Origin: a virus
Lineage: Duplodnaviria; Caudoviricetes
DNA: 41,781 nt
Direction: 5' to 3' (one strand)
IMG/VR virus record: IMGVR_UViG_3300049854_000029
Span: 1 to 41,781 of that record
The translations under genes were made by a program, and so were the position numbers. Below are positions 1,633 through 39,639 of the stretch, piece by piece. The notes beneath the pieces were generated by a model. It saw only the letters and a list, made by a program, of their open reading frames with translations, searched no databases and was not told the DNA's origin. Position 1 is the first letter of the stretch. Every line of letters starts with the position of its first letter.

Positions 1633-1851
1633 TCAAAACAGTTCACCCTTCCAAGGCAGACGGTACCCAGCCAGGGTTTTCCCAGACTCCGTATGAATCT
1701 TGACAGTCTCTATCTCTAGCCCCTGTCTCCTTAAATCCTGGATTCTCGCAGCCAAGCGAAAGCTCCGAATCTCTGGGTCGTTCAATGCGTCAATCGGAGT
1801 TAAAAGTCGCCCCTGTTTAAGACGGTTGAGAATAGCTTCTGTCTGGGTCAT
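1633..1851 (-). CDS. Small winged helix-turn-helix protein
   Basis: MTQTEAILNRLKQGRLLTPIDAL...RLAARIQDLRRQGLEI is a typical phage wHTH pattern; start at an ATGA overlap. Confidence 0.8.
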   Translation of the reverse strand: MTQTEAILNRLKQGRLLTPIDALNDPEIRSFRLAARIQDLRRQGLEIETVKIHTESGKTLAGYRLPWKGELF

Positions 1852-2009
1852 TCGGGCTTTTTCTCCTGATGTTCTGCCCATTCCTTGTGGCTAGGTGGCC
1901 GGGGAACCTTTCTTCGCTCGCCTTCTACCTGCTTTTTCATTGAGTCGAAGATGATGTCAAAGGCCTTCTTGTGAAAGTCCCAAACCTTTTTGGGATCGTC
2001 CCAGTTCAC
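1848..2009 (-). CDS. Hypothetical protein (53 aa)
   Basis: Manual translation from GTG; fills the gap with 4-bp overlaps on both sides. Confidence 0.6.
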   Translation of the reverse strand: MNWDDPKKVWDFHKKAFDIIFDSMKKQVEGERRKVPRPPSHKEWAEHQEKKPE

Positions 2010-17888: not shown

Positions 17889-18565
17889 AGACCTTTGAAA
17901 TACCTTCCTCCCCTCATGCGCATAGGAGTACTGGCGGCCATATGGTTAAAGGTCTCAATGCAATCAGAGACAAACTTGTCATATTCTTTCCGATACTCGG
18001 CAATCATGGCGAGGTGTTCTTGGGTGGGGTAAACGCGCAAGAGGTCCGCTGCTGCCCAATATGCTATGGCCATGTGGTAGGGGTAGAGGAGCGTGTGCCC
18101 GTCAAAGGGAACAGAACTGTCCCCAGTCAATGCCGGAGGCATCTTGATATATTCAATTCTTAGGTTGTTTGTCCCAGCGTCCCCACCTTCTGGAATGGGG
18201 TATAACCCAAGTTTCTGGTTGTTTGGGTCTATGTCGATGTAATAGTTTGTGGGTGAACCCGTGTCGTCTTGCCAGTCGTTCCCAGCCTCAATGTAGAGGT
18301 CATACTTTGATATACGCTTCAGTAAATCGTAGTTGGCAGAGACAGTGAGAATGTCAACCGTGTCTGTTGGGAGGGTGTACTCTGCTGTCCCGGAAACAAT
18401 GCTGTCCGTTGTGTTGTCAGTCAGAACCCTCGTATCAGAAACAAAGTGTTCTTGTCCTTCCTCGATCTTCGCCTGGACCTTAGATGTGCTCCAGCGACGG
18501 TTGTCTGGGTCTCCTGTTAAATCTCCTATTCGTTGCTGCAGTGTCAAACGTGTGAGCGACGGCAT
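17885..18565 (-). CDS. Head-tail adaptor (P22 gp4 / T7 gp11-like)
   Basis: SGTAEYTLPTD, GSPTNYY, LGLYPIP and YHMAIAYWAA patterns typical of podovirus adaptors. Confidence 0.8.
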   Translation of the reverse strand: MPSLTRLTLQQRIGDLTGDPDNRRWSTSKVQAKIEEGQEHFVSDTRVLTDNTTDSIVSGTAEYTLPTDTVDILTVSANYDLLKRISKYDLYIEAGNDWQDDTGSPTNYYIDIDPNNQKLGLYPIPEGGDAGTNNLRIEYIKMPPALTGDSSVPFDGHTLLYPYHMAIAYWAAADLLRVYPTQEHLAMIAEYRKEYDKFVSDCIETFNHMAASTPMRMRGGRYFKGL

Positions 18566-19649
18566 GCGTGATCTCCTTTAATAAAATGTTCTTGTACGTC
18601 ACAGCCATATCGGTTATGTTGAATTTCTGGAGCGCGTCCTGGTACGCCCTCTCTCCAATTTCAACCCGTTTCTTCTCATCTTTTATGAGCGTTTCCAGGT
18701 ATTCCACCCATTGGTCTGGGGTGTCTGCCAAATACCCGTTTACCCCATGTTCTATGGTCTGTTTGAAATGTGGGAGCGGAGAACAGACAGAAGGGGTTTT
18801 GAGCGAGGCGTATTCCAACCATCTGAGATTCGATTTGCCCCGGTTGAAATTGTTGTCAACCAGAGGGGCGATACCTATATCAAACCCAAAACTTGAGACC
18901 CAGTCTGGGTACTCATTTATTGGGGTGAACTCGTGGGTCCAATGAATTCTGTCGTGATGCTTGAAGAACTCAGGGCACCCGTGAATGCATTTGAAGGTCA
19001 CTTCAGGGTTTCGTTCCAGCACCTTGAAAATGGGATCTTTGACAAGTTCAAGGTCTGGGGTGTGGCTCCCTCCTCCGACCCAGCCAATAGTAACGCCCTG
19101 GCGGCCTGGGGAGGGAGACTTCTTCCGCCAGAGCGTAAAATCTATCGCATTCTCGGCAACGTGTATCCGAGGGTTCATTTCTTTGTACAAATCAGCCAGA
19201 AAGGGAGTAGATACAATGACCCCATCAGAGGCTTTCATCTGCTCGCAGAATATCTTGACGATCTCAGTCCCAGGCCCAAAAACCTGGGCTGCCGTGTTCC
19301 CAGGGGGAATGGAAAAGATGTAATCATCTATCTCCATGAGAAACGGCTTAGATTCAAACTGCCATCTGAGAGCCTGCCAGAGGTCCATGCTGTGCCGGGT
19401 GTGAAGGGCCATAAAGACCATGATGTCTGCCCATTCACAAGCCTTTTTCATCTGCTTTTCTATCTCAGGGCCATGTTCTAGGGTCAAAAGATCCGTCTCC
19501 CAGGGGTGCATCAAGTACCCGTTGTGCCCGTAGTACATGACCTTGGCTTCGACACCGATCTTCTTTAAGGCCTGGGCAGGCTGGTACACGCGCCAGAAGT
19601 TCACTCCAGAAACGTTTGTAGGTACGAAGATGACCTTTAGTTTAGGCAT
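18480..19649 (-). CDS. Glycosyltransferase, GT-B fold (GT4-like)
   Basis: EIDDY, IGWVGGGSHTPDL, DIGIAPLVDNNFNRGKSNLRWLEY, HGVNGYL. Confidence 0.9.
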   Translation of the reverse strand: MPKLKVIFVPTNVSGVNFWRVYQPAQALKKIGVEAKVMYYGHNGYLMHPWETDLLTLEHGPEIEKQMKKACEWADIMVFMALHTRHSMDLWQALRWQFESKPFLMEIDDYIFSIPPGNTAAQVFGPGTEIVKIFCEQMKASDGVIVSTPFLADLYKEMNPRIHVAENAIDFTLWRKKSPSPGRQGVTIGWVGGGSHTPDLELVKDPIFKVLERNPEVTFKCIHGCPEFFKHHDRIHWTHEFTPINEYPDWVSSFGFDIGIAPLVDNNFNRGKSNLRWLEYASLKTPSVCSPLPHFKQTIEHGVNGYLADTPDQWVEYLETLIKDEKKRVEIGERAYQDALQKFNITDMAVTYKNILLKEITHAVAHTFDTAATNRRFNRRPRQPSLEHI

Positions 19650-20317
19650 ATGACCTTCAGTTCACGGATCTTGTCAATGTCCCGTGGTTTATCTATTTGC
19701 CTGTAGATGGCCAGGTTCTTGTCAATGAACCCAAACTCGAACCCTGCCTTGTAAGCGTCCACCTGAAATTTCCAATCGTCTATCCCATGCTTAGAGAACT
19801 CTCCGTCTGTGTACCGGACCTGGTCAAAGACCTTACGCCTGAACGCCATGGTCGAGTGCCCTATGTGCGCGAGCCCGGTCTCTTTTAGGGTGTTCCAGTT
19901 AAAGGGTCTGGAGTCGCTTCTGCCAAACACTTCTCCCAGCTCGTGCATCACAAGGAAATGGCCGCTCAGGATGCTCATTTCTGGGTTCTTTTTGAAGTAG
20001 GTGAGGGTCCATTCTGCCCTCTCTTTCACAGACAGATCGTCCGCGTCCATCATGAGGAGAACGTCTGCCTGGGCTTCTTCAATACCCCGGTTCCTGGCGT
20101 TTGACCTGCCCCCATTCTCTTCGAGAGTGACGATCTTCAGCCTCTTGTCTTCCCCTGCCTTGGTCGTGAGAATGCTGCCAGTCCAGTCTGTGGACCCGTC
20201 GTTTACAACCACCACCTCAATGTCTTTTATGGTCTGGTTGAGGCATGAGTTGATAGCCTGCGCTATGTAGGGCTGGCCGTTAAATACTGGGATGATAAAA
20301 GACGCCTTGGGCTTCAT
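19637..20317 (-). CDS. Glycosyltransferase family 2
   Basis: SFIIPVFN, VVVNDGSTD, ARNRG, DADD; start at 20317 behind GGAGGTG. Confidence 0.92.
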   Translation of the reverse strand: MKPKASFIIPVFNGQPYIAQAINSCLNQTIKDIEVVVVNDGSTDWTGSILTTKAGEDKRLKIVTLEENGGRSNARNRGIEEAQADVLLMMDADDLSVKERAEWTLTYFKKNPEMSILSGHFLVMHELGEVFGRSDSRPFNWNTLKETGLAHIGHSTMAFRRKVFDQVRYTDGEFSKHGIDDWKFQVDAYKAGFEFGFIDKNLAIYRQIDKPRDIDKIRELKVICLN

Positions 20318-21822
20318 GACACCACCTCCAGCACCGGGGACCCTATTAAGGCAGACACCTTCTCTTTCAACTCGTTCCCGCTCCACAGGTCTAGGTAGTA
20401 ATCCTGCGCCTCTTTGTTTACCTCGGTCTTGGCCTCTATCTCTTTGATGCGGTTTATCATGTCGTTTATGAACGGGGTGACCTCTTTATCGGTGCTCAAA
20501 TACCCAGAATATGGGGCTGGGACGTTGGTGATGGGGTAACGCCCGTTAACCAGCATGAGCTTGGTTAACATCTCAAGCCGCTTTCCTTTGGTGAACTGGA
20601 TGATCCCTGAATAGTCCCGGATATCGACGTTCCCAACATTCATGATATTGTCGAACTTGATCCCTGGAAGAGCCTGCATGACTGTCCCCATGGCTGTCCC
20701 ATACACGTCATCTGTAAACACGAGCATCTTGAACTCCTCTGGCAGGGTCTTGTGAACGTCTCCCTCACCAACCGGGAAATTCACAAGTTCGGCCTTGATC
20801 CCAAGGTCATCCAGACGCCCCTGAGTCACCTTGTCGTCACAGAAGTGATAGTCAACACTATCGTTAAGAAACTTAACTAATGCGATAGCCGCACCAAACG
20901 GGCGGCTGGCGTAGAGTTTCTCAGCGTCTATCCCCATCCAAAAAATGGCCTTTTTTTCACATGTTTTCATCATATTGACTATGCCATAAACGTATTTCAT
21001 GTCGTCTACGACGGCCTCGGCCAGGACACAGCCAACATGAATGCCGAGCTTGTAGTTCCTCACGATGTAATAGGGACCATTGAAGGTGTCCGCATCGAGG
21101 ATTTTGGCCAGTCTCACTGCGTCGTATCTGAAAGCGTCAGCGTTTATCAGAACATCCTTGTCCTTATCCCCCCACCACCTCTTCCGCACCTCTTCAATGC
21201 GCGCCTGGACATCTACTCCAGGGCCTGAAATGGAGTTTTTGTCAGGCATGTCAGTAGAAAATCCGAAAGCCTGGAGCCACCGAGGTCTCACCCCGTTCTG
21301 TACGCACCTGCGCGCGTAGTCCCAGTCCTGGAGACCTTTGAGCTCCTCATTCCACTCAGGAGCCTTGTCCCTTTTGATGAAAGACATCGAAGAAATATAG
21401 TTGTATTTGGACAGCGTAAACGCGTCGAATGGCTCCCCATTGTGCCCTGGAAGTTCCGGGTTTGTGTACCTGTACCCCGTGTAAACCATGTCCACATCCG
21501 GGCTCTCAAACTCTTTTAAGACCAAGGCTGTCGTGTCTGGCTCAATGTAACAGTCTGCGTCCCAGGCGCACACAAGGTCACCTGTACACACCTTGAGCCC
21601 AGCATTCCTAGCCTTACACGCCCCACCATGCTCTATGTTAACCTTCTTAACCTTGCCCTCTTCTGCCAGTTTGTCCACATAAGACTCCACGATGGGGTCT
21701 TCTCCGTCAAACACGCACACCACCTCAACGTCTTTGTGGGACTGGTCCAACAGGGTCCCCAGGCACTTCTTCAGCTGGTCCAGCGATTTCTTGTATATTG
21801 GGACGTAGAACGAAACTTTCAT
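20314..21822 (-). CDS. Glycosyltransferase family 2 fused to a C-terminal domain (possibly a degenerate GT-B)
   Basis: SFYVPIY, VFDG, GACKARNAG, WDAD and QDWD in the N-terminal half. Confidence 0.85.
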   Translation of the reverse strand: MKVSFYVPIYKKSLDQLKKCLGTLLDQSHKDVEVVCVFDGEDPIVESYVDKLAEEGKVKKVNIEHGGACKARNAGLKVCTGDLVCAWDADCYIEPDTTALVLKEFESPDVDMVYTGYRYTNPELPGHNGEPFDAFTLSKYNYISSMSFIKRDKAPEWNEELKGLQDWDYARRCVQNGVRPRWLQAFGFSTDMPDKNSISGPGVDVQARIEEVRKRWWGDKDKDVLINADAFRYDAVRLAKILDADTFNGPYYIVRNYKLGIHVGCVLAEAVVDDMKYVYGIVNMMKTCEKKAIFWMGIDAEKLYASRPFGAAIALVKFLNDSVDYHFCDDKVTQGRLDDLGIKAELVNFPVGEGDVHKTLPEEFKMLVFTDDVYGTAMGTVMQALPGIKFDNIMNVGNVDIRDYSGIIQFTKGKRLEMLTKLMLVNGRYPITNVPAPYSGYLSTDKEVTPFINDMINRIKEIEAKTEVNKEAQDYYLDLWSGNELKEKVSALIGSPVLEVVS

Positions 21823-23459
21823 TAAGCCCTCCCCTTTTCGATCATGTAGTTGCCCAACACCAGAATGTCTATCCCAACCCCATAAAAGCAGCGAATTGCC
21901 TCTTCGGGGCTGCGAATGATGGGTTCCCCCATGACATTCAGGGATGTATTGAGCAAAACGGGATGGCCTGTCTTTTCGCCGAAAGCAGTCAAAAGCTCGT
22001 GAAATTTGGGATTGTCTTTGTGCCTAACAATCTGGGGCCGGGCTGTCTTGTCTACGTGGGTGACCGCAGGAATGCTCCCATTTCTGACTTTGCAGGCAAT
22101 GATCATGAATTCGTTTGCGCCGGCGTAGAAGTATTTGTCGTAAGCCTCTTCAGTGACAGAGGGACAAAAGGGCCTGAAACCCTCTCTGAACTTGACGTAT
22201 TTGTTGATGATGTCCTTGTTCTCTGCCTTGAGAGGGGACATTAGGATCGAACGGTTCCCGAGAGCCCTGGGGCCCCCTTCCATCTTCCCTTGGAACCAGC
22301 CCACAATCTTGTTCTCAGCCAAAGCCTCAGCCACGCGGTGGAGACTGTAAGGCTGGTAAGAGATCTTGTTCCTTTTAAGAATTGCCTCTATTTCTTGATC
22401 TGAATATTCAGAACCGTAGTAGAGATGTGAAAGCCTCTGCGGGACGTAAGGGTTTGTCTTGTGATATTCCAGGAGAGCAGCACCTATTGAAAGGCCAGAG
22501 TCTGAAGCCAAGGGAAAGGGCCAATAGTTGTCCAGGCCGCACTCTTCCATGATACGCTGGTTCAGCTTGACATTTAGGAACACCCCCCCTGCAGTACACA
22601 GGTTCTTTTGCCCGGTGCGTTTCATCCACCGCTTTATATAGGTAAGGATCTTGTTTTCAAGGATCTTCTGGGCTGAAGCTGCCACGTTCTCCCGCCCATA
22701 TTTGGCAATCATCTTCGTATACTCGTCCGCCGCCCCGAAGTGGTAGTACACCTGGCCATTGTTATGGTAGAAGCCCATCGGTTGCACCTTGTACATGTGC
22801 TCTTTCATCTCCCGTTCAGGCACCTTAGAAGCGTCTCCAAAAGGGGCCAGCCCCATGGTTTTCCCCTCGTCTTGGCAAGGTTTGGCAAACAAAGCCTCTG
22901 TAACAGACCCATAAAACCAGCCCCAGGAGTAAATGGACTCCTTCTTGTATTTCCTGACCCGGAACACACCGTCTTTGCCCCTGATGTAAACTCCGTCCGT
23001 CTTGACGTAAGCCATGGGCTTTATCTTTCCGCCAGATCCGATATACACGCACTGAGTAACATCGCTCCCAATCCCGTCAATCGTGATGATGAGGCTCTCC
23101 TTCAATCCAGAGGTGTAATACGCGCTCGCAGCATGACAATCGTGGTGCGGTATCTCGATGACAGCCTTAACGTCGTAGCCCTTCTGTTGGTATGGGACCG
23201 GCATCCCAAAAGAAGATTTGGCCTTAAATGCCACCTCAAAATGAACTCTCACAATATTGGTAAGACCGTCTGAAATGGCGATTTTGTCCACGTCTTCCAT
23301 CTTGTCTCCATTGAGACAAAACTTGACGGAATCGAGCACGCCATTGACCCCCGTCTTGATCCGGTTGAACCTTTCTTCTGCTATGTATCGAACGATCTTT
23401 CCATCTTCCACGAGACACGCATTCGAATCGTGCCCAATGGAAACTCCCAGAACTTTCAT
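21822..23459 (-). CDS. O-carbamoyltransferase (NodU/CmcH/TobZ family)
   Basis: GHDSNA, EERFNRIK, HHDCHAASAY, DGIG, EGKTMGLA, AGGVFLNVKLN, GPRALGNRSIL, REGFRPFCPS, LNTSLN. Confidence 0.95.
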   Translation of the reverse strand: MKVLGVSIGHDSNACLVEDGKIVRYIAEERFNRIKTGVNGVLDSVKFCLNGDKMEDVDKIAISDGLTNIVRVHFEVAFKAKSSFGMPVPYQQKGYDVKAVIEIPHHDCHAASAYYTSGLKESLIITIDGIGSDVTQCVYIGSGGKIKPMAYVKTDGVYIRGKDGVFRVRKYKKESIYSWGWFYGSVTEALFAKPCQDEGKTMGLAPFGDASKVPEREMKEHMYKVQPMGFYHNNGQVYYHFGAADEYTKMIAKYGRENVAASAQKILENKILTYIKRWMKRTGQKNLCTAGGVFLNVKLNQRIMEECGLDNYWPFPLASDSGLSIGAALLEYHKTNPYVPQRLSHLYYGSEYSDQEIEAILKRNKISYQPYSLHRVAEALAENKIVGWFQGKMEGGPRALGNRSILMSPLKAENKDIINKYVKFREGFRPFCPSVTEEAYDKYFYAGANEFMIIACKVRNGSIPAVTHVDKTARPQIVRHKDNPKFHELLTAFGEKTGHPVLLNTSLNVMGEPIIRSPEEAIRCFYGVGIDILVLGNYMIEKGRA

Positions 23460-24295
23460 TTCCCCCCCAATATCTTTTCGAACTCCTCTTTGTATTTGGA
23501 AAACACGTCAGGCAACGGGTCTTTCCTAGGCTCAAACATGAACGATCCAAAGACCCCAGACTGCGTTTGGAGGTGCACTCTGGGATGATTCTTTACCGCG
23601 TCCCAAACGTGCACATCGTCTTCCATCATGCACCCGTGAGTCACAGCCTCCACGCTTGTTGTTATAACTCGGTACATCTTCTCTTCCCGCCTCTGCAGGG
23701 GCTTACATTCGCAGAAATGCCAGATCTTGGCCCCGGAATCTTGGACCACAAACGGATAGTTCCCGAAGTCTTTGAAAAGTTTGTGGTCTGTGCCTGTAAT
23801 GTCCCCGAAATACATATCCTCTTCCTGCGCCCCGTAGAACCCGTGATAATGGAGGCCAAACCTGTTACGCATGATGGTCTTCCACTTGTCTGTCCGGCCT
23901 TTGGTGATCTCAAGGTCTAGGTCTTCTCCAGCGAAAGATCTCATGTTCACGTAGTAGGCCAAGACCTTCTTGTCCAAGCCTTGGAGGTTCCCTGGGTCCA
24001 CCACGATCATGTCAGGGTGCAAATACATCACATGGTCCTTGGTACAGGTCTTAAGGCACTCATCAAAGACCCTCGTATAATCTTCTTTGAAGTCCTTGAA
24101 GTCTTTGTCTCTGAACACTTTTATCTTGTTGTCTTTGTCGTAAGTGCCCTTGATGTAATCCAATAGTTCCAGAGTGCCATCAGTAGAGTTCCCGTCGAAG
24201 TAAATCACCTCGTCCGCGTAGGGCAGGACAGACATCAACCCATACCCTATGAACTGCCTCTCGTTCTTGATGACACTCCAAACGCTAAGAGACAT
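23456..24295 (-). CDS. Glycosyltransferase family 2-like
   Basis: IKNE...DEVIYFDGNSTDGT...LHPD. Confidence 0.82.
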   Translation of the reverse strand: MSLSVWSVIKNERQFIGYGLMSVLPYADEVIYFDGNSTDGTLELLDYIKGTYDKDNKIKVFRDKDFKDFKEDYTRVFDECLKTCTKDHVMYLHPDMIVVDPGNLQGLDKKVLAYYVNMRSFAGEDLDLEITKGRTDKWKTIMRNRFGLHYHGFYGAQEEDMYFGDITGTDHKLFKDFGNYPFVVQDSGAKIWHFCECKPLQRREEKMYRVITTSVEAVTHGCMMEDDVHVWDAVKNHPRVHLQTQSGVFGSFMFEPRKDPLPDVFSKYKEEFEKILGGK

Positions 24296-25315
24296 TTACC
24301 AACCCGCTGGCGCGGTGCCTCCAGCATTGATTTGTCCCCAATCACCGCAGTTTGCAGTCGCAGTCGAAATGATGACAGCCTTGTTCGTCGAGTCGTACCA
24401 CACCTCCCCCACCGCGGTCGGGGTTGACAGTTTGAGGTTTGCTTCTGTTTTGGAAGGCAGAATGAACGGACCGTTTAGTGTGAACGTCACACCGTCGTCC
24501 AATGTCAGGGCAGTTGGAGTCATGGTTGAGATGGCAGTCCCGGAACCCATCAGAAACTGATTTGTAACGGTTGCACTCGTGACAGACAGTGCACCGCTCA
24601 CGGAAACAGTGCCAGCAGTTCCGTTCGAGATCGTTTGCCCGTTTTCGAGGACAATGTCTGCGTCAGATATATTGGCTCCGCTCAAGTTCAGGCCATATTT
24701 ATATCCGCCACTTGCAGCGTTGCTGATATAGATTCCATTCGTGACAGCAACGGTTGGGTGTTCATTGTAGATCCACAGTCCGTGGAAATTGTTGACATTG
24801 GCAGTTGATATATTGGTGAAATATGGAGCCATCCAAATGCGAGCTCCCACGAATGCTGTCCCAGACTCGGCAGCAATGGCATCTCCCCCACTGTACGAAG
24901 CACGCGCGGAGAATTCGCCGCCCACACCAGTCCGCATGGTTGCCCCGGGAGCGATGTATGTCCTCCCATACACTCCGCGCCCTGTCATGGACTCGTCTGC
25001 TCCATAACTTGCAGACACACCTTCAACCCCTTCGGAAACGAAGTTACCGTTGTCTCCGACATACCAGTTGTACCGACCTCGAACGACTCCCACCTCAGCC
25101 GCACTGGCCGGGCTCGCCGTGATAGACGAGAGAAATGAGTAATACACCGTCCCATCCGAAGCAGCGGTCCCTTCGTTGTAGGTTGCACTCAACTTGCTGG
25201 CCGTTCCGAGGGTCACGTTCCCGCTGTGAATATTGGCATCTGAGTCAGCTTTCACCCCACCAGCCATTGCGACTGCGGGACACGATAAACAAATGAGAAC
25301 CAGTAACCGCCTCAT
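24296..25315 (-). CDS. Beta-rich putative virion spike/decoration protein with signal peptide
   Basis: MRRLLVLICLSCPAVAMA N-terminus; G/S/T/A-rich beta repeats; GEVWYDST motif. Confidence 0.65.
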   Translation of the reverse strand: MRRLLVLICLSCPAVAMAGGVKADSDANIHSGNVTLGTASKLSATYNEGTAASDGTVYYSFLSSITASPASAAEVGVVRGRYNWYVGDNGNFVSEGVEGVSASYGADESMTGRGVYGRTYIAPGATMRTGVGGEFSARASYSGGDAIAAESGTAFVGARIWMAPYFTNISTANVNNFHGLWIYNEHPTVAVTNGIYISNAASGGYKYGLNLSGANISDADIVLENGQTISNGTAGTVSVSGALSVTSATVTNQFLMGSGTAISTMTPTALTLDDGVTFTLNGPFILPSKTEANLKLSTPTAVGEVWYDSTNKAVIISTATANCGDWGQINAGGTAPAGW

Positions 25316-25698
25316 CGAAGTGCATCCGATTTGATCCAGTAAATGACCCGCACATTGGTGTCCCCTCCGGCGGCAGCGTCAGCCATGCCGTAAAGAGAAC
25401 CTGTATAAACACCGTCTGTGGTGAAGGTCTTAGAGGAGAGTATTGGAAGGCCCATTGTGGTCAATGACGTTGTATTGGACCCGATCCAGAGCGTGTAAGC
25501 GTTGTTGCAGAAAATGTCGACCGCTGCCGATTGGATGGCGTAAGTCGGATCAACAATCTGGGTGGCCGTGTGAGTCGTAACCGTTACGCTTGCCGTCCTA
25601 ATAGAGTTCCCGGCGTTCCGGCTCTTCGCCGTAGCCCAGGGATCTGCGAATAAACTTGTTGGAAGTAAACACAGCAGTACAGCTAAGGCTTTTTTCAT
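25312..25698 (-). CDS. Small beta-sandwich putative virion protein with signal peptide
   Basis: MKKALAVLLCLLPTSLFA N-terminus; AAGGAG RBS; T-rich beta pattern. Confidence 0.65.
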   Translation of the reverse strand: MKKALAVLLCLLPTSLFADPWATAKSRNAGNSIRTASVTVTTHTATQIVDPTYAIQSAAVDIFCNNAYTLWIGSNTTSLTTMGLPILSSKTFTTDGVYTGSLYGMADAAAGGDTNVRVIYWIKSDALR

Positions 25699-25720
25699 CT
25701 TTCTTCTCCTTTTTTAGGTC

Positions 25721-26236
25721 TTACTTGACAGCTTTTGCGTTTATCGAAATTGGCAAATTGAACATGCTATCTCTGATTCTTGACGCGTCTTTGAGTGCGT
25801 AAGGGAGAAGCGTGACCCGCTCAACCCTTGAGAACCCAGCGTCACTCAGCCTCCCTGACAAAACGGGGTATGTGAAGCATTGGTAATGACAGTGATGTGG
25901 TGTCTCCTGGTCTCCGTGGATCAAATGGTGCATCCACGTGGTCATCGACCGACCCGTCCTGATGTACATCTCAACGATGGCATCGAAGTCGGGTACAGAG
26001 AGCCAGAGAACACCACCCTTTTTGAGAACTCGACTCCAACCTTTGAGAACCACAGGAACCTCTTTGTTCATGAAATGTTCAAGGATATGACTCGCATATA
26101 TCTCCTCAACAGATTCGTCCTCGAAGTTGTACATGTCCCTGGCATTTTGCACATAGTCCACGTCTCCATGCTGAACAATGTCCAGACGTTTGAACCCTTC
26201 GATCTTCTCTCCCATGCAACCAATATGAAGTTTCAC
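25721..26236 (-). CDS. SAM-dependent methyltransferase (Methyltransf_11-like)
   Basis: LHIGC, EEIYASHILEHF, RVLKKGG...SVPD; a type often found in glycan clusters. Confidence 0.88.
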   Translation of the reverse strand: MKLHIGCMGEKIEGFKRLDIVQHGDVDYVQNARDMYNFEDESVEEIYASHILEHFMNKEVPVVLKGWSRVLKKGGVLWLSVPDFDAIVEMYIRTGRSMTTWMHHLIHGDQETPHHCHYQCFTYPVLSGRLSDAGFSRVERVTLLPYALKDASRIRDSMFNLPISINAKAVK

Positions 26237-29828: not shown

Positions 29829-30127
29829 TGCATGTCAAATCTGACCTTGAACGTCCCATCTGCTGAACTCTTTGCAATGACAACACTCGATGCTATAGCC
29901 AAAGAAAGCTCTTGAATCTCTGAAAGGGTCCCAACCACGGCTTCTCTTTTGATGATGAGGTCCCCTGCCCCGTCCTTAACTGAGATGTCGTACGAGGTGG
30001 TCTCTGCTGGGGGGATCACCCGAATGCGCCGTGCTATGGCCCAAATCCCAGTAATCGACCCGGTCCCTGTACCGGACGCCACTGTAATGCTCAACGGCCT
30101 GACTTCTTCTCTGCCTGGAGTCGTCAT
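29825..30127 (-). CDS. Small beta-rich putative capsid decoration/virion protein
   Basis: Follows the MCP gene; beta-strand pattern. Confidence 0.65.
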   Translation of the reverse strand: MTTPGREEVRPLSITVASGTGTGSITGIWAIARRIRVIPPAETTSYDISVKDGAGDLIIKREAVVGTLSEIQELSLAIASSVVIAKSSADGTFKVRFDMH

Positions 30128-30134
30128 ATAGGTT

Positions 30135-30178
30135 GGGACTTAGGGGAGAGGGTTTTACCCCCCTCCCCCTTGAGTCCC
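30135..30178 (-). terminator. Strong GC hairpin after the capsid gene (mRNA stabiliser or terminator; no U-tract)
   Basis: GGGACT..AGGGG/GAGGG stems pair with CCCTC/CCCCT..AGTCCC around a GGGTAAAA loop. Confidence 0.5.
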
Positions 30179-30185
30179 GAATGAT

Positions 30186-30347
30186 TTACGCCAAGTCGTG
30201 CACGAACAAAATAACGCCAGCTGAGGGGTTCAAACATGCCGCAGCGGCACTGATCTTGTAAGTGATCTGACTATAAGTCGAATATGGGTTGGAATGAGAT
30301 GCACCGCTGATTTGGTACATCTGAAGTCCGCCCATAATCTCTGTCAC
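30186..30347 (-). CDS. Major capsid protein, exon 2 (53 aa)
   Basis: VTEIMGGLQMYQISGASHSNPYSTYSQITYKISAAAACLNPSAGVILFVHDLA* matches the expected N4-gp56-type C-terminus (NP...Y/WK...A..LN). Confidence 0.9.
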   Translation of the reverse strand: MTEIMGGLQMYQISGASHSNPYSTYSQITYKISAAAACLNPSAGVILFVHDLA

Positions 30348-30537
30348 CGTGTGAATCCCATGGTTTTTTCGTTTAAGTTATTGCCATGGACTAGACTGTA
30401 TATCGCGGGTGTCTCCCGCCTCTTGTCAGTCGTTCGGGCGTTCAAGCTGCTAACGCCACGGTCTCTGCTGCTTCCAGCCTTTGACCGTTATTCGAGAATG
30501 CAATCACAGATTCCTCCGTGAAAGGGCATGTGTTTCT
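30348..30537 (-). ncRNA. Group I self-splicing intron, 190 nt, no ORF
   Basis: 5' splice site after U (GGU); terminal G; P7 A(C)GACUG/CAGUCU; J8/7 GAUAUA; P4 ACGGUC/GACCGU; P2, P3, P5, P6, P8, P9.0 and P9 all pair. Confidence 0.92.
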
Positions 30538-31410
30538 ACCGAATGCCTGTTGTCCGAAGATGAAGACCATGTTGACCGAGTGAGCTGCCACACGGTACTT
30601 TGGCGCGAGTGTGGAACTGATCCACCGCACGCCAACGGTCTTACCAACTTCGCCCTTGTACATCGTGGTCTGGCTGTTCTGGTACACGTTCCAATTTGCC
30701 CACGTGGGATCTTTTGAGAGGTTATGCAGAGCGTACGGGTGTGCATAGCCCACAAAGTAACCATCCCCGAAAGGTCGCGCATTTTGGACGCGAAGCTTAC
30801 GAACAGCTTTCCTGATCGAGTACACAGACAACTGAGCCGAGGTGGTCGGAGCGGTCTTGAGCACAGCAGAAAGCCGTGTGCAAGAAGTCCCGAAAACGCC
30901 TGGGAACTGGAACTGAATATCCCCGTTGTGAGTCCCGTTGGTTGAGCAGAATGCCGAAACAACGCTCGACATGTAGCTCGACAGGTTGCTCGTGGCCACC
31001 TGGTTCTTGTTGATGTCGCTCTTGTAAATGCCCATCTGGCAGACCCGCTCAAGAGTCTGCTTTGCAGACTGGTTGAGCGTTTCCATCGCGCCTTCACGGG
31101 CATTGAGGCTGTAGGTCCATTCAGCAACGTCTGTAACTTTGACTCCACGCCCATACTGAGCAATGGTTGCAGACACTCGGCGAGCCGAGAGAGCAACCGC
31201 TGTATTCGCTCCAGACTCAGCGAGAGCTGAAGATGCGCCTGCGAGCGCGATCCAGCCATTCCAGTACGTGATATTTCCTTCACCTTTTGGCTGAGGAGCT
31301 TTAACAGCGAACTCATAAAGAGGCGTCTCAGCGTAAAGCACCAAGAGGCTCTTTGGAATAAAATAATGGGAGAGTAAATTATCCCCCGTTGATGTGGTGG
31401 TATCCGTCAT
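30538..31410 (-). CDS. Major capsid protein (N4-gp56 family, HK97 fold), exon 1 (291 aa; spliced product 344 aa)
   Basis: QPKGEG..TYW, ATIAQYG, YAHP...L..DP.W, GEVGK..GVRWISS, IFGQQAFG; follows the scaffold gene. Confidence 0.92.
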
Positions 31411-34950: not shown

Positions 34951-35934
34951 CTATAAATGTGATTTGCCTTCTCTGTACTCGGTCACCATGTCAGCAACCG
35001 TCTCTTCCAAAGGTCTCTCTGGCACCCAGTGGACCAGGCTCTTAAGTCTGGTGTTGTCCACAGCTCGCCTTGCGTGCCCGTCTGGGTACTTGGTGTCAAA
35101 CCCGATTTTCAAGTCAGGTTTGCCGCACTCGTCTACAATCATGCGGCCCAAGTCCCCCATACTGATTTCTCTGTCATGCCCAATGTTTATAGGCCTTGCA
35201 TCTTGAGCGTCCGGGCACTCAGCCAACTTAACCAGGCCAAGAGCCAGGTCACGCGCATCCACAAAGCATCTCGTCTGGTTCCCAGTGCCCCACACCTTCA
35301 AAGGATCTTCTCCGTCCATGACGCGCCGGATAAGCCCTGGAATAACGTGGCTAGAGTCTCTGTCAAAATAGTCTCTCGGCCCACACGCATTTGAAAACCT
35401 GGTCACAACCACAGGAACCTTCAACTCTCTCCACAAGAACTCCCCTTGTTTCTCTAAGATTCCTTTGGCCAGGCCGTAGCCTTCGTTGGTCTCTTCCGGG
35501 TGAAGAGGCCAGCCCCAGTCTTCTTTGGTTGGAATAAGGACGTTGTGAGGGTACACGCACACTGTTGAGCACAAGACCGCCAACTGTGGCGGATACTTTT
35601 GCATGGACTCAATCAAGTTTGTGTTTATCCTTAAATTGTCTTGCAGCATGCCCAGATGATCTTTCCGGTTCATGTGAATATTCGTCACCCGGGCAGCCGT
35701 ATGAAAGACAATCTTTCCTTCAATCTGGTCTAGCTGCTCTTCTGCCAGGTCAACCACCTCCACCTTCAAAGACCCTGTTTCCATGGTGTCTTGCACATTT
35801 TCCATGTGCCCACGGCTCAAGTTGTCATACACCTGAACATTGGCACCGTACCCCACCAGAAGGTCCACCAAATGGCTCCCAATAAACCCGCACCCGCCAG
35901 TAACAACCACCTCTTCACGTTTCCAGTCGATCAT
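34951..35934 (-). CDS. NAD(P)-dependent nucleotide-sugar epimerase/reductase (GDP-L-fucose synthase / GDP-mannose 3,5-epimerase-like)
   Basis: TGGCGFIG, catalytic YGLAK, SSHVIPGLIRR, VWGTGNQTRCF. Confidence 0.9.
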   Translation of the reverse strand: MIDWKREEVVVTGGCGFIGSHLVDLLVGYGANVQVYDNLSRGHMENVQDTMETGSLKVEVVDLAEEQLDQIEGKIVFHTAARVTNIHMNRKDHLGMLQDNLRINTNLIESMQKYPPQLAVLCSTVCVYPHNVLIPTKEDWGWPLHPEETNEGYGLAKGILEKQGEFLWRELKVPVVVTRFSNACGPRDYFDRDSSHVIPGLIRRVMDGEDPLKVWGTGNQTRCFVDARDLALGLVKLAECPDAQDARPINIGHDREISMGDLGRMIVDECGKPDLKIGFDTKYPDGHARRAVDNTRLKSLVHWVPERPLEETVADMVTEYREGKSHL

Positions 35935-35941
35935 TGTCTCC

Positions 35942-37399
35942 TCACACTCTCCCCACCACATACGAATGCCTGCGCGGAGGTAACGGTCTGTGTTGATAAA
36001 CTTCAGGTTCAGACATGCAGATGTACCGCACCAAATCGAAGTGGTCCTTGTACGGGCTCAGGCGTTCCGGTTGCATCTTCTCGTCTCTGCGCCATCTTTG
36101 TAGGGACCTGATAATGTTCCGGCACCTCTCCTTAACTAGAAGCTTCGGGCTGTTCGATGGGCCCAGGGGCTGCTTCTTGTCGTACCTCAGATACGCTTTT
36201 ACCTTGTCTATCCCAGTCTCAATCTCTCTGTCTCCTAAGGTGTACGAGTCCTGGAAATCAAACCCCAGATCATCGTTCAACTCCATCTTCAAAGTCTTCC
36301 CCCCATAGCTCCTCTGGCTCGCTCCGTGCCGGTCCACTATGCGCCATTCCATGTGCCTGCCATATTCCACGTTTCTCATGATCTCTATATAGTCTCTGGT
36401 CGTGTACACCGTCTCCCTAGACTTAGAGAAGTCTGTCTCTGGGTACTCTGTGTCAATGACAATCTGCCCTTTTGTGTCTACCCAGTACCAGCACATAGCC
36501 CACGCTTTCCCAGGGGCCGGGTCTATGACCATGCCCCACTGCGCGTCCGGGGGAGGCTGATAATCGTTCCCCACCACATGAACCGCCTTATCAAAGCTCC
36601 CTGCCAAAATAACCGACGAGAGGTGCATGAACCGTCCCCTTGCCCTGGCTTGCACCTCGTCGTCGTCCATACTCGAGATAAGCAACTGAATCTGGTTATG
36701 GTCTAGCCTGCCTCGTACCCCATGTTCCAGGCAGTTATCTTCAATATCCGCAAATGTGATCCCATAATCCTTATTGGGGGCTTCTACCAGCTCATCTTGT
36801 ATCCAAGCCGAATCCATGAGCGGGGTCATGTAAAATAGGATGATTCCCCCTTCTCTCATTCTGGACAAGGTCGCGTGGAATATCTCTTTAGGAGGCGGCT
36901 CGTCAAAGCATGCCACTCCCAATGTCGCCGATTCCCATTCTTTGGTTTCTTGCTGGTACGACATCTTGTCAATCAAGAATCCGTTGTCTGTCTTGTACTG
37001 GCTAATCCACATCTTCCCAGCCTTGATTCCTTCGTATTTCCCTCTGGGCCACCACTTCTGAATCTCGGTATCAATGCTTCCTATAAGCTCTATGTTCTTT
37101 GACTCTGTCCCAATCCGAATCCTTTTGGGATGGGGGAACTTGTCATAGATTGGCATCCCCTGGAAATACTGGTTCTGCGGCCCCCATATGATGTTCCCCA
37201 GAATGTTTGCCAGTAACGCCGTTTTCCCAACCCCGTTCCCTCCAACAAACAAAGAGATGAACTTCTTTCCTTCTCCAACCAGCCGGATGAATTCTTCTTG
37301 TTTGCCGTTCGGGTCAAAGAATTCCCCTTTCCGCTCCTCTTTCCTCTTGTCCAGAAGAGCGTATAGAGCCTTTAACTGTTCCCCTTTGTGCCGGCTCAT
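35942..37399 (-). CDS. terL: Terminase large subunit
   Basis: Walker A GGNGVGKT, Walker B CFDEPP, coupling motif MTP, nuclease IDP and DHFDLVRY. Confidence 0.93.
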   Translation of the reverse strand: MSRHKGEQLKALYALLDKRKEERKGEFFDPNGKQEEFIRLVGEGKKFISLFVGGNGVGKTALLANILGNIIWGPQNQYFQGMPIYDKFPHPKRIRIGTESKNIELIGSIDTEIQKWWPRGKYEGIKAGKMWISQYKTDNGFLIDKMSYQQETKEWESATLGVACFDEPPPKEIFHATLSRMREGGIILFYMTPLMDSAWIQDELVEAPNKDYGITFADIEDNCLEHGVRGRLDHNQIQLLISSMDDDEVQARARGRFMHLSSVILAGSFDKAVHVVGNDYQPPPDAQWGMVIDPAPGKAWAMCWYWVDTKGQIVIDTEYPETDFSKSRETVYTTRDYIEIMRNVEYGRHMEWRIVDRHGASQRSYGGKTLKMELNDDLGFDFQDSYTLGDREIETGIDKVKAYLRYDKKQPLGPSNSPKLLVKERCRNIIRSLQRWRRDEKMQPERLSPYKDHFDLVRYICMSEPEVYQHRPLPPRRHSYVVGRV

Positions 37400-38389: not shown

Positions 38390-39158
38390 TGGTACCCTCT
38401 CCCTTGAACCAAGTGAAGGATAGTGAACCTATTCTCGGTTATTTCATATGAATTCCCCTTGTATGGAAAAAATGGAAAGTAGCTTCACTATGGTTCACTT
38501 GCTTCACCCGAAGAGGTTAAAGGAACAAAGTGTGATTAGATGAGTGTGATTGGTCTGAGTGTGACAAGAGACTTTTTGAGAGGGAGATATGGATGGGAAT
38601 AATAATAATAACTATACAGGGATTTACGTTTGACCTACCCCTGGGGGTAGTTAAATTATTTGCTTTACATCTTTTTTACTTCCGATAATAATAAATTCCG
38701 TTAAATATAATCTGATGTTTTCCGTCGGAGAGAGAAGTTATGTGTTTATCTCAGTATAACTGTCACTCAATAGGATTGATAATCAATCACATTCTTTTGA
38801 GAGGAGGGAGATTAAATCTGTTTACATGTGTAGACGGTATTCTCCCAAATTCTCTAATTCCTTGCTCGGTATTGTCTCTCTTTAAGCGTAAGCGTGTATC
38901 ACTACACCTCATATCACACTGTCACACAATCACACACAATCGCATTTGATTGGGATGTAAGTTACTTGGGGTTCTATTTCAACACGCATACGCAGTTTTA
39001 TTGACGATAGCGAGCAAATAAGGAGAGCGGGATATGCAGAGATGGGCGCCCGTTTACGGGCGACTGAGTCTGCAACATCCCGCAACAGTTATAGATAGAG
39101 AAGGTGCACTGGGTTTTCTATTGGTGGGATTCCGCTGCTTTTTTCTTTTGTCAAGTTT

Positions 39159-39338
39159 ACCTATAGTTTAACGGATACGGTTTGTTGTCAACAGTTCCTC
39201 TCGAAGTGTTCAAAGAGGCTCCTACTATCAACCGTGAAGGCGTAACCTTTTCAGAGACGCGCTGATGGCTTTGCTTGGCTCAAAGATCATTTGATAGTCA
39301 CCCAGTAGAGACTACCTCAAAAACTATAGGTTCGTTAC
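39159..39338 (-). ncRNA. Candidate multi-branched structured RNA
   Basis: Starts just after the consensus promoter; closed by the 11-bp stem ACCUAUAGUUU/AAACUAUAGGU; 4 internal hairpins. Confidence 0.5.
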
Positions 39339-39344
39339 CTCTTA

Positions 39345-39374
39345 ATTATAAGGCCGTGCAACAAAGTATGTCAA
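39345..39374 (-). promoter_or_regulatory. Consensus sigma70 promoter
   Basis: TTGACA (39374-39369), 18-bp spacer, TATAAT (39350-39345), pointing into a ~1-kb non-coding region. Confidence 0.75.
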
Positions 39375-39402
39375 GATCTATTTCTTGTCACATCAACGCA
39401 TC

Positions 39403-39639
39403 TTAAAAATTGGCTCCTGGCCGTGGGATCGAACCACGCTTGTACCTGGTTAACAGCCAGGTCCCGTCACCTTGATGGGTAGCCAGGAATTGACAGTGGG
39501 CCGCGCCCGCCCGGTTTAGGTAGGAACCTTCCCCGGTAGCTACTTCCGAACGCAACGCGGTGGCCACTGCCAAATTAGTCATGTCTATACATCTTATAGA
39601 TAAGCCAAACAACTCTGTGGCCCGAGTGACTGTGTGCAA
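39403..39639 (-). CDS. Hypothetical protein (start uncertain)
   Basis: ORF track only. Confidence 0.35.
   Translation of the reverse strand: MHTVTRATELFGLSIRCIDMTNLAVATALRSEVATGEGSYLNRAGAAHCQFLATHQGDGTWLLTRYKRGSIPRPGANF

Follow-up and report, generated by a model that had tools for sequence, protein, structure and literature searches.

A 190-nt group I intron in a phage major capsid gene is a member of a compact intron family without ORFs that also occurs in tRNA-Thr(GGU) genes

The window, that is, the whole stretch of DNA analysed here (41,781 nt, IMG/VR record IMGVR_UViG_3300049854_000029, Caudoviricetes), is a phage record of 41.8 kb that is rated complete and carries terminal repeats, and PHROG matches identified an integrase, a portal and other structural genes in it. 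The major capsid gene is found in two pieces flanking an insert:

30538..31410, minus strand: exon 1 of the major capsid gene (N4-gp56-like, PHROG 1357), 291 aa, ending ...FIFGQQAFG at GGU
30348..30537, minus strand: the insert, a 190-nt ORF-less group I intron, last base G30348
30186..30347, minus strand: exon 2, capsid C-terminus, 53 aa plus stop, 74% identical to residues 292-344 of P0002

With one nucleotide over a multiple of three, the 190-nt insert shifts the frame by one, and the unspliced ORF (31410-30442) encodes 322 aa whose match to PHROG 1357 (major head protein) stops at position 291-292 of the 356-position profile. This ORF of capsid exon 1 was the only one of the 34 scanned with a major-head PHROG match. 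Deletion of 30348-30537 gave a 344-aa protein aligning gap-free, at 79.9% identity over residues 1-344, with the intron-less P0002 (344 aa), which its source labels an N4-gp56 family major capsid protein. The preliminary description, made from the sequence alone, had predicted this 344-aa product and proposed comparing it with intron-less N4-gp56-family proteins, and the end-to-end alignment over the full length bears the prediction out. Among the 120 homologues listed, exon 2 was matched by 118 (E<1e-3); the two it missed were the read-through protein of the window itself and P0037, which is likewise read through an intron. Of the 120, only the window's own protein matched the unspliced tail, so that homologues aligning to the tail, which had been named as evidence against the intron, did not appear. 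Gly291, immediately before the insertion site, was invariant in all 119 of 119 homologues. Nearly all the homologues listed were intron-less at this site, and the same was found for one locus from a metagenome scan for capsid relatives and for L001, L003, L004 and L006 (L002 lies outside the motif's resolution). Given how widely the listed homologues lack it, the intron appears to be carried along and tolerated, not required. Two proteins of the capsid family depart from the consensus at their C-termini, P0121 (266 aa) after KDPTW... and P0034 (360 aa) after ...NPSCGVI, each possibly owing to another insertion or a frameshift.

Elsewhere in the window, a 485-aa ORF (35942-37399, minus strand) occupies the terminase position and had no PHROG, Pfam or PDB match; it is likely a divergent large terminase, and a split terminase was rejected, since by eye the ORF looks intact with Walker A/B-like motifs. 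A cluster of glycosyltransferase, carbamoyltransferase and methyltransferase genes lies among the structural genes, and together with an epimerase gene between terminase and portal (18480-26236 and 34951-35961 for all of these genes) it possibly serves virion or DNA glycosylation. About 1 kb (38400-39400) contains no long ORF (only a 69-aa ORF on the plus strand) and adjoins a tRNA-Asn gene (39411-39488); this partly AT-rich region had no Rfam match.

The predicted elements of the intron RNA are as follows:

30525..30540, minus strand: P1, exon G30540 G30539 U30538 with guide G30527 C30526 C30525, plus A30537-U30528
30530-30528, minus strand: P10 candidate, CAU that can pair with exon 2 GUG in the window
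30501..30524, minus strand: P2 hairpin with a GGAA (GNRA) loop, two-sided changes in 10 of 10 pairs
30493..30496, minus strand: 5' strand of P3, CUCG, pairing with 30425-30420
30458..30488, minus strand: P4 (30488-30483/30463-30458) with P5 (30478-30467, GAAG loop), J4/5 AAAG, J5/4 AGA
30437..30457, minus strand: P6/P6a hairpin, containing the UAG (30444-30442) that ends the 322-aa read-through
30433-30427 (bulged C30432)/30398-30393, minus strand: P7, predicted G-binding pair G30431-C30394
30419-30405, minus strand: P8, followed by J8/7 GAUAUA (30404-30399); the P7-P3-P8 region spans 30393..30433
30348..30391, minus strand: P9.0 (G30391-C30349 and U30390-A30350), P9 hairpin (30389-30357) and omega-G (30348)

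All 190 nt could be assigned to helices, every core pair is intact in the window copy, and the strand folded with z = -3.0 against 200 shuffles, one of which was equally good.

Relatives of the intron were collected with patterns for the P7 region, which yielded 20 viral and 97 genome loci, and further patterns added viral copies; loose-pattern matches (117) were mostly chance, and this way of sampling favours copies whose P7 resembles the window's. Of the genome matches, 98 in all, a tRNA-stem rule resolved 85; removing the insert turned 84 of these into tRNA-Thr(GGU) genes, each split at 36/37, just 3' of the anticodon (loci L144-L240). The 13 unresolved matches comprised six whose model scores suggest this tRNA intron again, two protein-gene copies in L188 and five that look like chance; one row without an ARAGORN call and one duplicate or masked row were also left out. 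The resulting family of compact, ORF-less introns comprised 105 analysed copies, 83 in tRNA-Thr(GGU) genes and 22 in protein genes including the window's, the latter set excluding viral L127, L130 and L262/L260 (ends not fixed) and duplicate contigs. CPR (Patescibacteria) lineages are named in 66 of the 83 tRNA record titles, and some other titles name Gammaproteobacteria, Bdellovibrionales, Coxiellaceae or Acidobacteriota. The window intron shares core sequence and helix layout with the tRNA-Thr(GGU) copies, of which the nearest is 65% identical. With the window excluded from training, a tRNA-only profile (88.7 bits, E 5e-27) and an mRNA-only profile (97.5 bits, E 1e-29) each found the intron as the sole match in the window, and the covariance model detected no second family copy there. 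The preliminary description had missed what, judged from sequence and predicted structure, is membership in a large family common to tRNA-Thr(GGU) and other phage capsid genes.

The tRNA copies measure 169-241 nt (median 194), the smallest being L161, L172 and L221 at 169-170 nt, and the protein-gene copies 181-205 nt (median 190). The window intron is smaller than the 205-nt Azoarcus intron, but its earlier placing among the most compact group I introns was overstated: the description fits only the family as a whole, in which 30 of 83 tRNA and 7 of 21 other protein-gene copies fall below 190 nt, the shortest having 169 nt. With 37 of 104 relatives shorter, a claim to the smallest natural group I intron was rejected; a literature search for that phrase found no paper.

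The 21 other protein-gene copies lie on 19 contigs, one of which is in an Omnitrophota bin. Against PHROGs, nine of the interrupted proteins matched major head, one portal and 11 none, and five of these 11 align with two of the head-protein matches at 41-72% identity. The insertion sites vary from copy to copy. In L259 (1381-1590, minus strand), a 205-nt member with a GAU target interrupts a gene of the window's own N4-gp56-like capsid family at another place, following ...DKSDPFD and 23 codons downstream of the window's site. P0037 and P0123 are read-through products at this second site, and P0122 and P0124 of the same 90% cluster are intron-less. Three copies occur in one capsid-like gene of L252 (1453-1647, 1919-2117 and 2742-2930), and L265 is also a multi-copy case; the arrangement recalls Twort orf142, which reportedly holds several introns in one gene. 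A copy in a portal gene (L125:1457-1652, minus strand), with an HNH gene upstream, is predicted to present C.A instead of U.G (exon GGC, guide ACC). The near-identical pair in the Omnitrophota bin (L188:1448-1658 and 1804-1984, minus strand) lies 346 nt apart near the end of a non-capsid gene and sits at a contig end, possibly as an assembly duplicate, and the copy at L127:1460-1674 (minus strand) has a similar position in a non-capsid gene. Group I-like cores that are more distant but have GACUG/CAGUC at P7 were seen on other viral contigs, in L008, L012 and L121 at 19-28 bits and in L057 and L100 by eye.

Next, the predicted helices were evaluated across the family. In a rule-free MAFFT alignment of 59 distinct rows, 91.7% of the cells were paired, compared with 76.8% in shuffled and at most 48.7% in slid controls, and two-sided changes occurred in 27 of 45 pairs. 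P4, P5 and P6 were paired in 100%, 99.4% and 97% of cells with compensatory changes, and the P9 columns align poorly there (50.8%). Among all 105 copies, P4 pair 54:84 is AU in 91 and UA in 14, P6 pair 85:105 is GC in 80 and AU in 23, P3 pair 47:121 is CG in 94, UA in 10 and UG in 1, and P7 pair 109:149 is AU in 101 and GC in 4, the bulged C being A in the same four copies; part of the P7 invariance follows from the search patterns themselves. The U.G pair at the 5' splice site (U30538.G30527) is UG in 58 of the 59 rows, and exon position -2 covaries with the guide (GC 52, AU 5, CG 2). Exon triplet and guide were GGU/GCC in 97, GAU/GUC in 5, GCU/GGC in 2 and GGC/ACC in 1 of the 105 copies, counts in which the guide was located by a pairing rule and for which the rule-free alignment gave the same columns. 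A GNRA word occupies the P2 loop in 101 copies, omega-G is present in all 105, and U stands at -1 in 104. Taken together, covariation supports the predicted P1, P2 and P4-P8 and a short P3 of 3-4 pairs.

P1, P2, P4 through P8, J8/7, the P9 hairpin and omega-G agree with the preliminary description, and three of its pairings fared differently. Its P3 (UUCUCG/CAAGAG) is out of register: its pairs 47:119 and 48:118 form in 11 and 9 of 105 copies, and a register shifted by one forms in 105, 105 and 103, giving C30496-G30420, U30495-A30421, C30494-G30422 and a likely fourth pair, G30493-C30425, across two bulged A. Its P9.0 (AGUCC/GGAUU) was mis-paired; G30391-C30349 and U30390-A30350 are paired in 102 and 98 of 105 copies with two-sided changes, slid registers in 9-55. 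Its P10 (CAU/GUG) can form in the window and is only moderately supported across the family (88, 70 and 69 of 105 at the three positions). The 3' ends of the protein-gene members were chosen by hand from the reading frame; those of the tRNA copies are set by the tRNA stem alone, so P9.0 pairing there (81 and 80 of 83) constitutes independent support for the 3' splice site. The restored protein and the joint in the RNA run described below uphold both splice sites, and 30348-30537 are the exact intron coordinates.

The assignment of the insert to group I, as predicted from its sequence, is well supported by the helices, omega-G, P9.0, the U.G pair and covariation: it passes all structural features tested, and fails RF00028 and subgroup IA2. 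The P3-P7 core comprises a P7 of six pairs with a bulge and predicted G-binding site and a covarying P3 of 3-4 pairs; group I introns studied so far generally have a P3 of 6-7 pairs. No gathering-score match to Rfam RF00028 (Intron_gpI) was found in the window, and the search proposed earlier with this covariance model left the intron unmatched even at E<=10 across 30000-31000; loci of six relatives gave no match at E<=1. Subgroup IA2 is defined by P7.1/P7.2 insertions between P7 and P3. Since only 7 nt (ACAAGGG, ACAAGAG or ACAAAGG) separate P7 from P8 in 105 of 105 copies, P7.1 and P7.2 are absent, as the preliminary description had stated in setting the intron apart from the T4/Twort type. 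The family's AACGACU motif resembles the class IA consensus, and serves as a lead only. No intron-encoded endonuclease ORF was found in the 190 nt. In 50,697 annotated phage records, similar DNA was limited to three chance-level matches of 38-43 nt.

To relate these predictions to transcripts, three public runs that contain the capsid-intron region were compared with the window. In the metatranscriptomic RNA run X2, a 238-nt contig joins 30190-30347 to 30538-30617, skipping exactly 190 nt, with an unambiguous joint, 0 other letters and 0 substitutions; this is one contig of depth 5.4 from one study, and such contigs carry neither strand nor level. The predicted exon junction, for which RT-PCR had been suggested, is thereby present in a contig of this RNA run. 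Compared with the window, the three X2 contigs (238, 448 and 145 aligned nt) have 0 substitutions over 831 letters and one 2-nt gap, which lies at 30868 in exon 1 in a contig of depth 5.5 and is probably an error. No intron-containing RNA contig was found among the X2 contigs placed on the window. Most of the 24.5 kb compared is without X2 contigs, a gap in coverage that constitutes no evidence. The simplest reading is that the X2 contig is spliced mRNA of the window's own strain, and because it joins the gene halves exactly at the intron ends, the intron was likely removed by self-splicing. In DNA run X1, which may be the record's own source, a single contig crosses the stretch unbroken. DNA run X3 also has a joined contig, and its intron-less strain differs from the window at 4/151 and 5/151 letters (~97% identical). 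Since the joined form occurs here as DNA, an intron-less allele exists in nature, and an intron-less near-clone may, with lower probability, have supplied the X2 contig. Two short X3 contigs match only the P6-P7 core (30422-30464) and then diverge, pointing to further family members in that sample.

Given the invariant Gly291 site, the restored protein, P1-P9.0 with compensatory changes and the exact RNA joint, we consider it highly probable that an ORF-less group I intron lies in the major capsid gene, likely excised from the mRNA by its own catalysis, which would restore the 344-aa protein. The intron-less allele in X3 and, for the second site, a 90% protein cluster with both intron-bearing and intron-less members would also suit a genuine intron that splices poorly or needs a host or phage protein, the joined RNA then coming from an intron-less sibling phage. 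A P3 of only 3-4 pairs is in keeping with this, and implies that a helper protein may be needed for splicing; moreover, ribosomes on unspliced RNA would run 96 nt into the intron, through P1-P5, to the UAG in P6. This explanation is nevertheless improbable, because X2 equals the window at 831 aligned letters save the 2-nt gap, the known intron-less strain being ~3% off, because all core pairs of the window copy are intact, and because the interrupted gene is the sole major-head ORF among the 34 scanned in a record rated complete. The idea that the protein-gene copies retain an early in-frame stop so that ribosomes halt ahead of the core was rejected, such stops occurring in 18 of 22 cases in frame and in 33 of 44 in the other frames. 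Scarcely credible is the absence of any splicing, with the capsid supplied as a 322-aa read-through and a second, 53-aa polypeptide started at GUG 30347, ribosomal bypass or an assembly artefact: exon 2 does start with GUG and is listed as an ORF, and the insert does shift the frame, but the conserved, covarying ribozyme core, the exactly joined RNA and the read-through tail without a homologue match speak against it, as do the unbroken contig of X1 (possibly the record's source) and the insert's relatives in protein genes of 19 other contigs and in 83 tRNA genes.

Following established group I chemistry, self-splicing of the capsid intron would begin with P1 presenting the U.G pair at the 5' splice site, which free guanosine bound at the P7 G-C pair would attack; omega-G, positioned by P9.0, would then take the guanosine's place in P7, and exon 1 would attack the 3' site with P10 aligning exon 2. 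Docking of the GNRA loop probably stabilises the core, with its P3 of only 3-4 pairs. As for spread, the absence of an own nuclease and the many sites with matched guides lead us to infer that the introns likely get to new sites through reverse splicing, at G-N-U triplets of abundant RNAs. There the guide would be retuned to GGU, GAU, GCU or GGC targets, and copies would then travel from phage to phage through recombination or with the help of free-standing nucleases that are borrowed. In the window, no HNH, GIY-YIG or LAGLIDADG Pfam match was found among 92 ORF or exon translations of the 177 ORFs listed, and the nucleases seen were a VRR-NUC nuclease and a PD-(D/E)XK exonuclease. HNH, Endo VII, LAGLIDADG or GIY-YIG genes lie within 1.5 kb of the intron on at least 6 of the 19 other contigs (55 of 80 listed ORFs scanned), and such neighbours would fit borrowed homing.

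For the origin of the window copy, the other protein-gene copies form one clade (21 rows, support 100/99) and the window copy falls outside it in both trees, with 0% of bootstrap trees placing all protein-gene copies together. It carries tRNA-type states at P4 54:84, P6 85:105 and positions 150 and 154, and in the core it comes closest to a tRNA intron, from which it differs at 9 of 87 columns (versus 15 for the nearest protein-gene copy). These observations point to an independent jump from a bacterial tRNA-Thr(GGU) gene into capsid mRNA by way of the common GGU triplet, which we regard as a tentative possibility, on the unlikely side: the window copy sits on a long branch (0.64-0.78), a single protein-gene clade is not rejected by AU tests (p 0.26 and 0.41), the nearest tRNA and nearest protein-gene copies are both 65% identical to it, the mRNA-only profile scores higher (97.5 vs 88.7 bits), and its P2, P5 and P9 loops are like those of phage copies. 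Alternatively, it may be an early-branching phage copy. Neither a tRNA-Thr gene nor an attP in tRNA-Thr was found in the window, where the tRNA-Asn gene was the only tRNA gene. A broader and more doubtful proposal is that nuclease-free minimal ribozymes with a P3 of 3-4 pairs might move back and forth between the anticodon loops of bacterial tRNAs and the capsid mRNAs of phages, reverse splicing at G-N-U and retuning the 3-base guide at every new site, the window copy being an independent jump caught splicing in sediment RNA. If true, nature would have recorded how introns transpose at the RNA level from one class of RNA to another, and would also supply ribozymes that are smaller than Azoarcus.

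In practical terms, standard annotation yields a truncated capsid protein of 322 aa whose tail is false (P0001), and P0037 and P0123 are affected likewise. Because Rfam is also blind to the family, the capsid genes of a number of freshwater and sediment phages are annotated wrongly, as are the tRNA-Thr(GGU) genes in many CPR genomes. Natural group I introns of 169-205 nt with a reduced P3 provide a test of minimal core size, and ORF-less copies at many sites of one capsid gene family with matched guides make nuclease-free spread a testable question.

Among known systems, the Azoarcus intron (205 nt; PMC13168695, accessible part) is likewise compact and ORF-less, has helices P2-P9 and P9.0, and lies in a tRNA anticodon loop as most family members do; it belongs to subgroup IC3, from the Ile class of Williams 2020 (bioRxiv 10.1101/2020.01.27.920355). 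At 190 nt, the window intron is smaller, as previously claimed, and the family differs from Azoarcus in its median size (190-194 nt), its P7 (A-C-G-A-C-U-G/C-A-G-U-C-U), a P3 of 3-4 pairs, a large A-rich P9 loop and the lack of an RF00028 match. The td, nrdB and nrdD introns of T4 and the Twort-type introns (IA2) also reside in essential phage genes, and the window intron differs from them in having no P7.1/P7.2. According to the accessible part of PMC3706429 (Pope et al. 2013), the capsid gene of LittleE contains an 819-bp intron that encodes an endonuclease and whose junction was established by RT-PCR and protein sequencing, a precedent for efficient splicing from a capsid gene; a tail gene of BAKA and Optimus contains a 265-bp insertion, no size for a long ORF, and a capsid-gene intron of Tuc2009 is cited. 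As described there, the LittleE, BAKA and Optimus introns resemble the window intron in being group I-type, in a virion structural gene and spliced in a late transcript, the LittleE intron differing in its 819 bp with an endonuclease versus 190 nt without. The introns of Bastillevirinae, with non-coding parts of 350 +/- 108 nt, align to RF00028, which the window intron does not match, and phage introns are reported to be more diverse than the present subgroups allow for (PMC11878797, accessible part). Jug phages hold 2513 group I introns averaging ~206 nt, 37 of 76 with metatranscriptome support (PMC12880540, accessible part); by description only, these are small phage introns with RNA evidence, as here. 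Phage capsid introns and small phage introns are thus already in print, which limits the surprise of the present one. In the accessible parts of PMC8450103 and PMC11835236, nothing on a compact intron family was found, and a link between tRNA and phage introns was not found in print, most relevant tRNA-intron papers lying outside the search, so that its absence is not established. For tRNA genes, 21 settings of group I introns have been catalogued (Williams 2020, bioRxiv 10.1101/2020.01.27.920355). Closest of all to the window intron are the tRNA-Thr(GGU) introns at 36/37, which share its guide, P2-P9.0 layout, size and invisibility to Rfam, and differ in the RNA that hosts them, a tRNA rather than a phage capsid mRNA.
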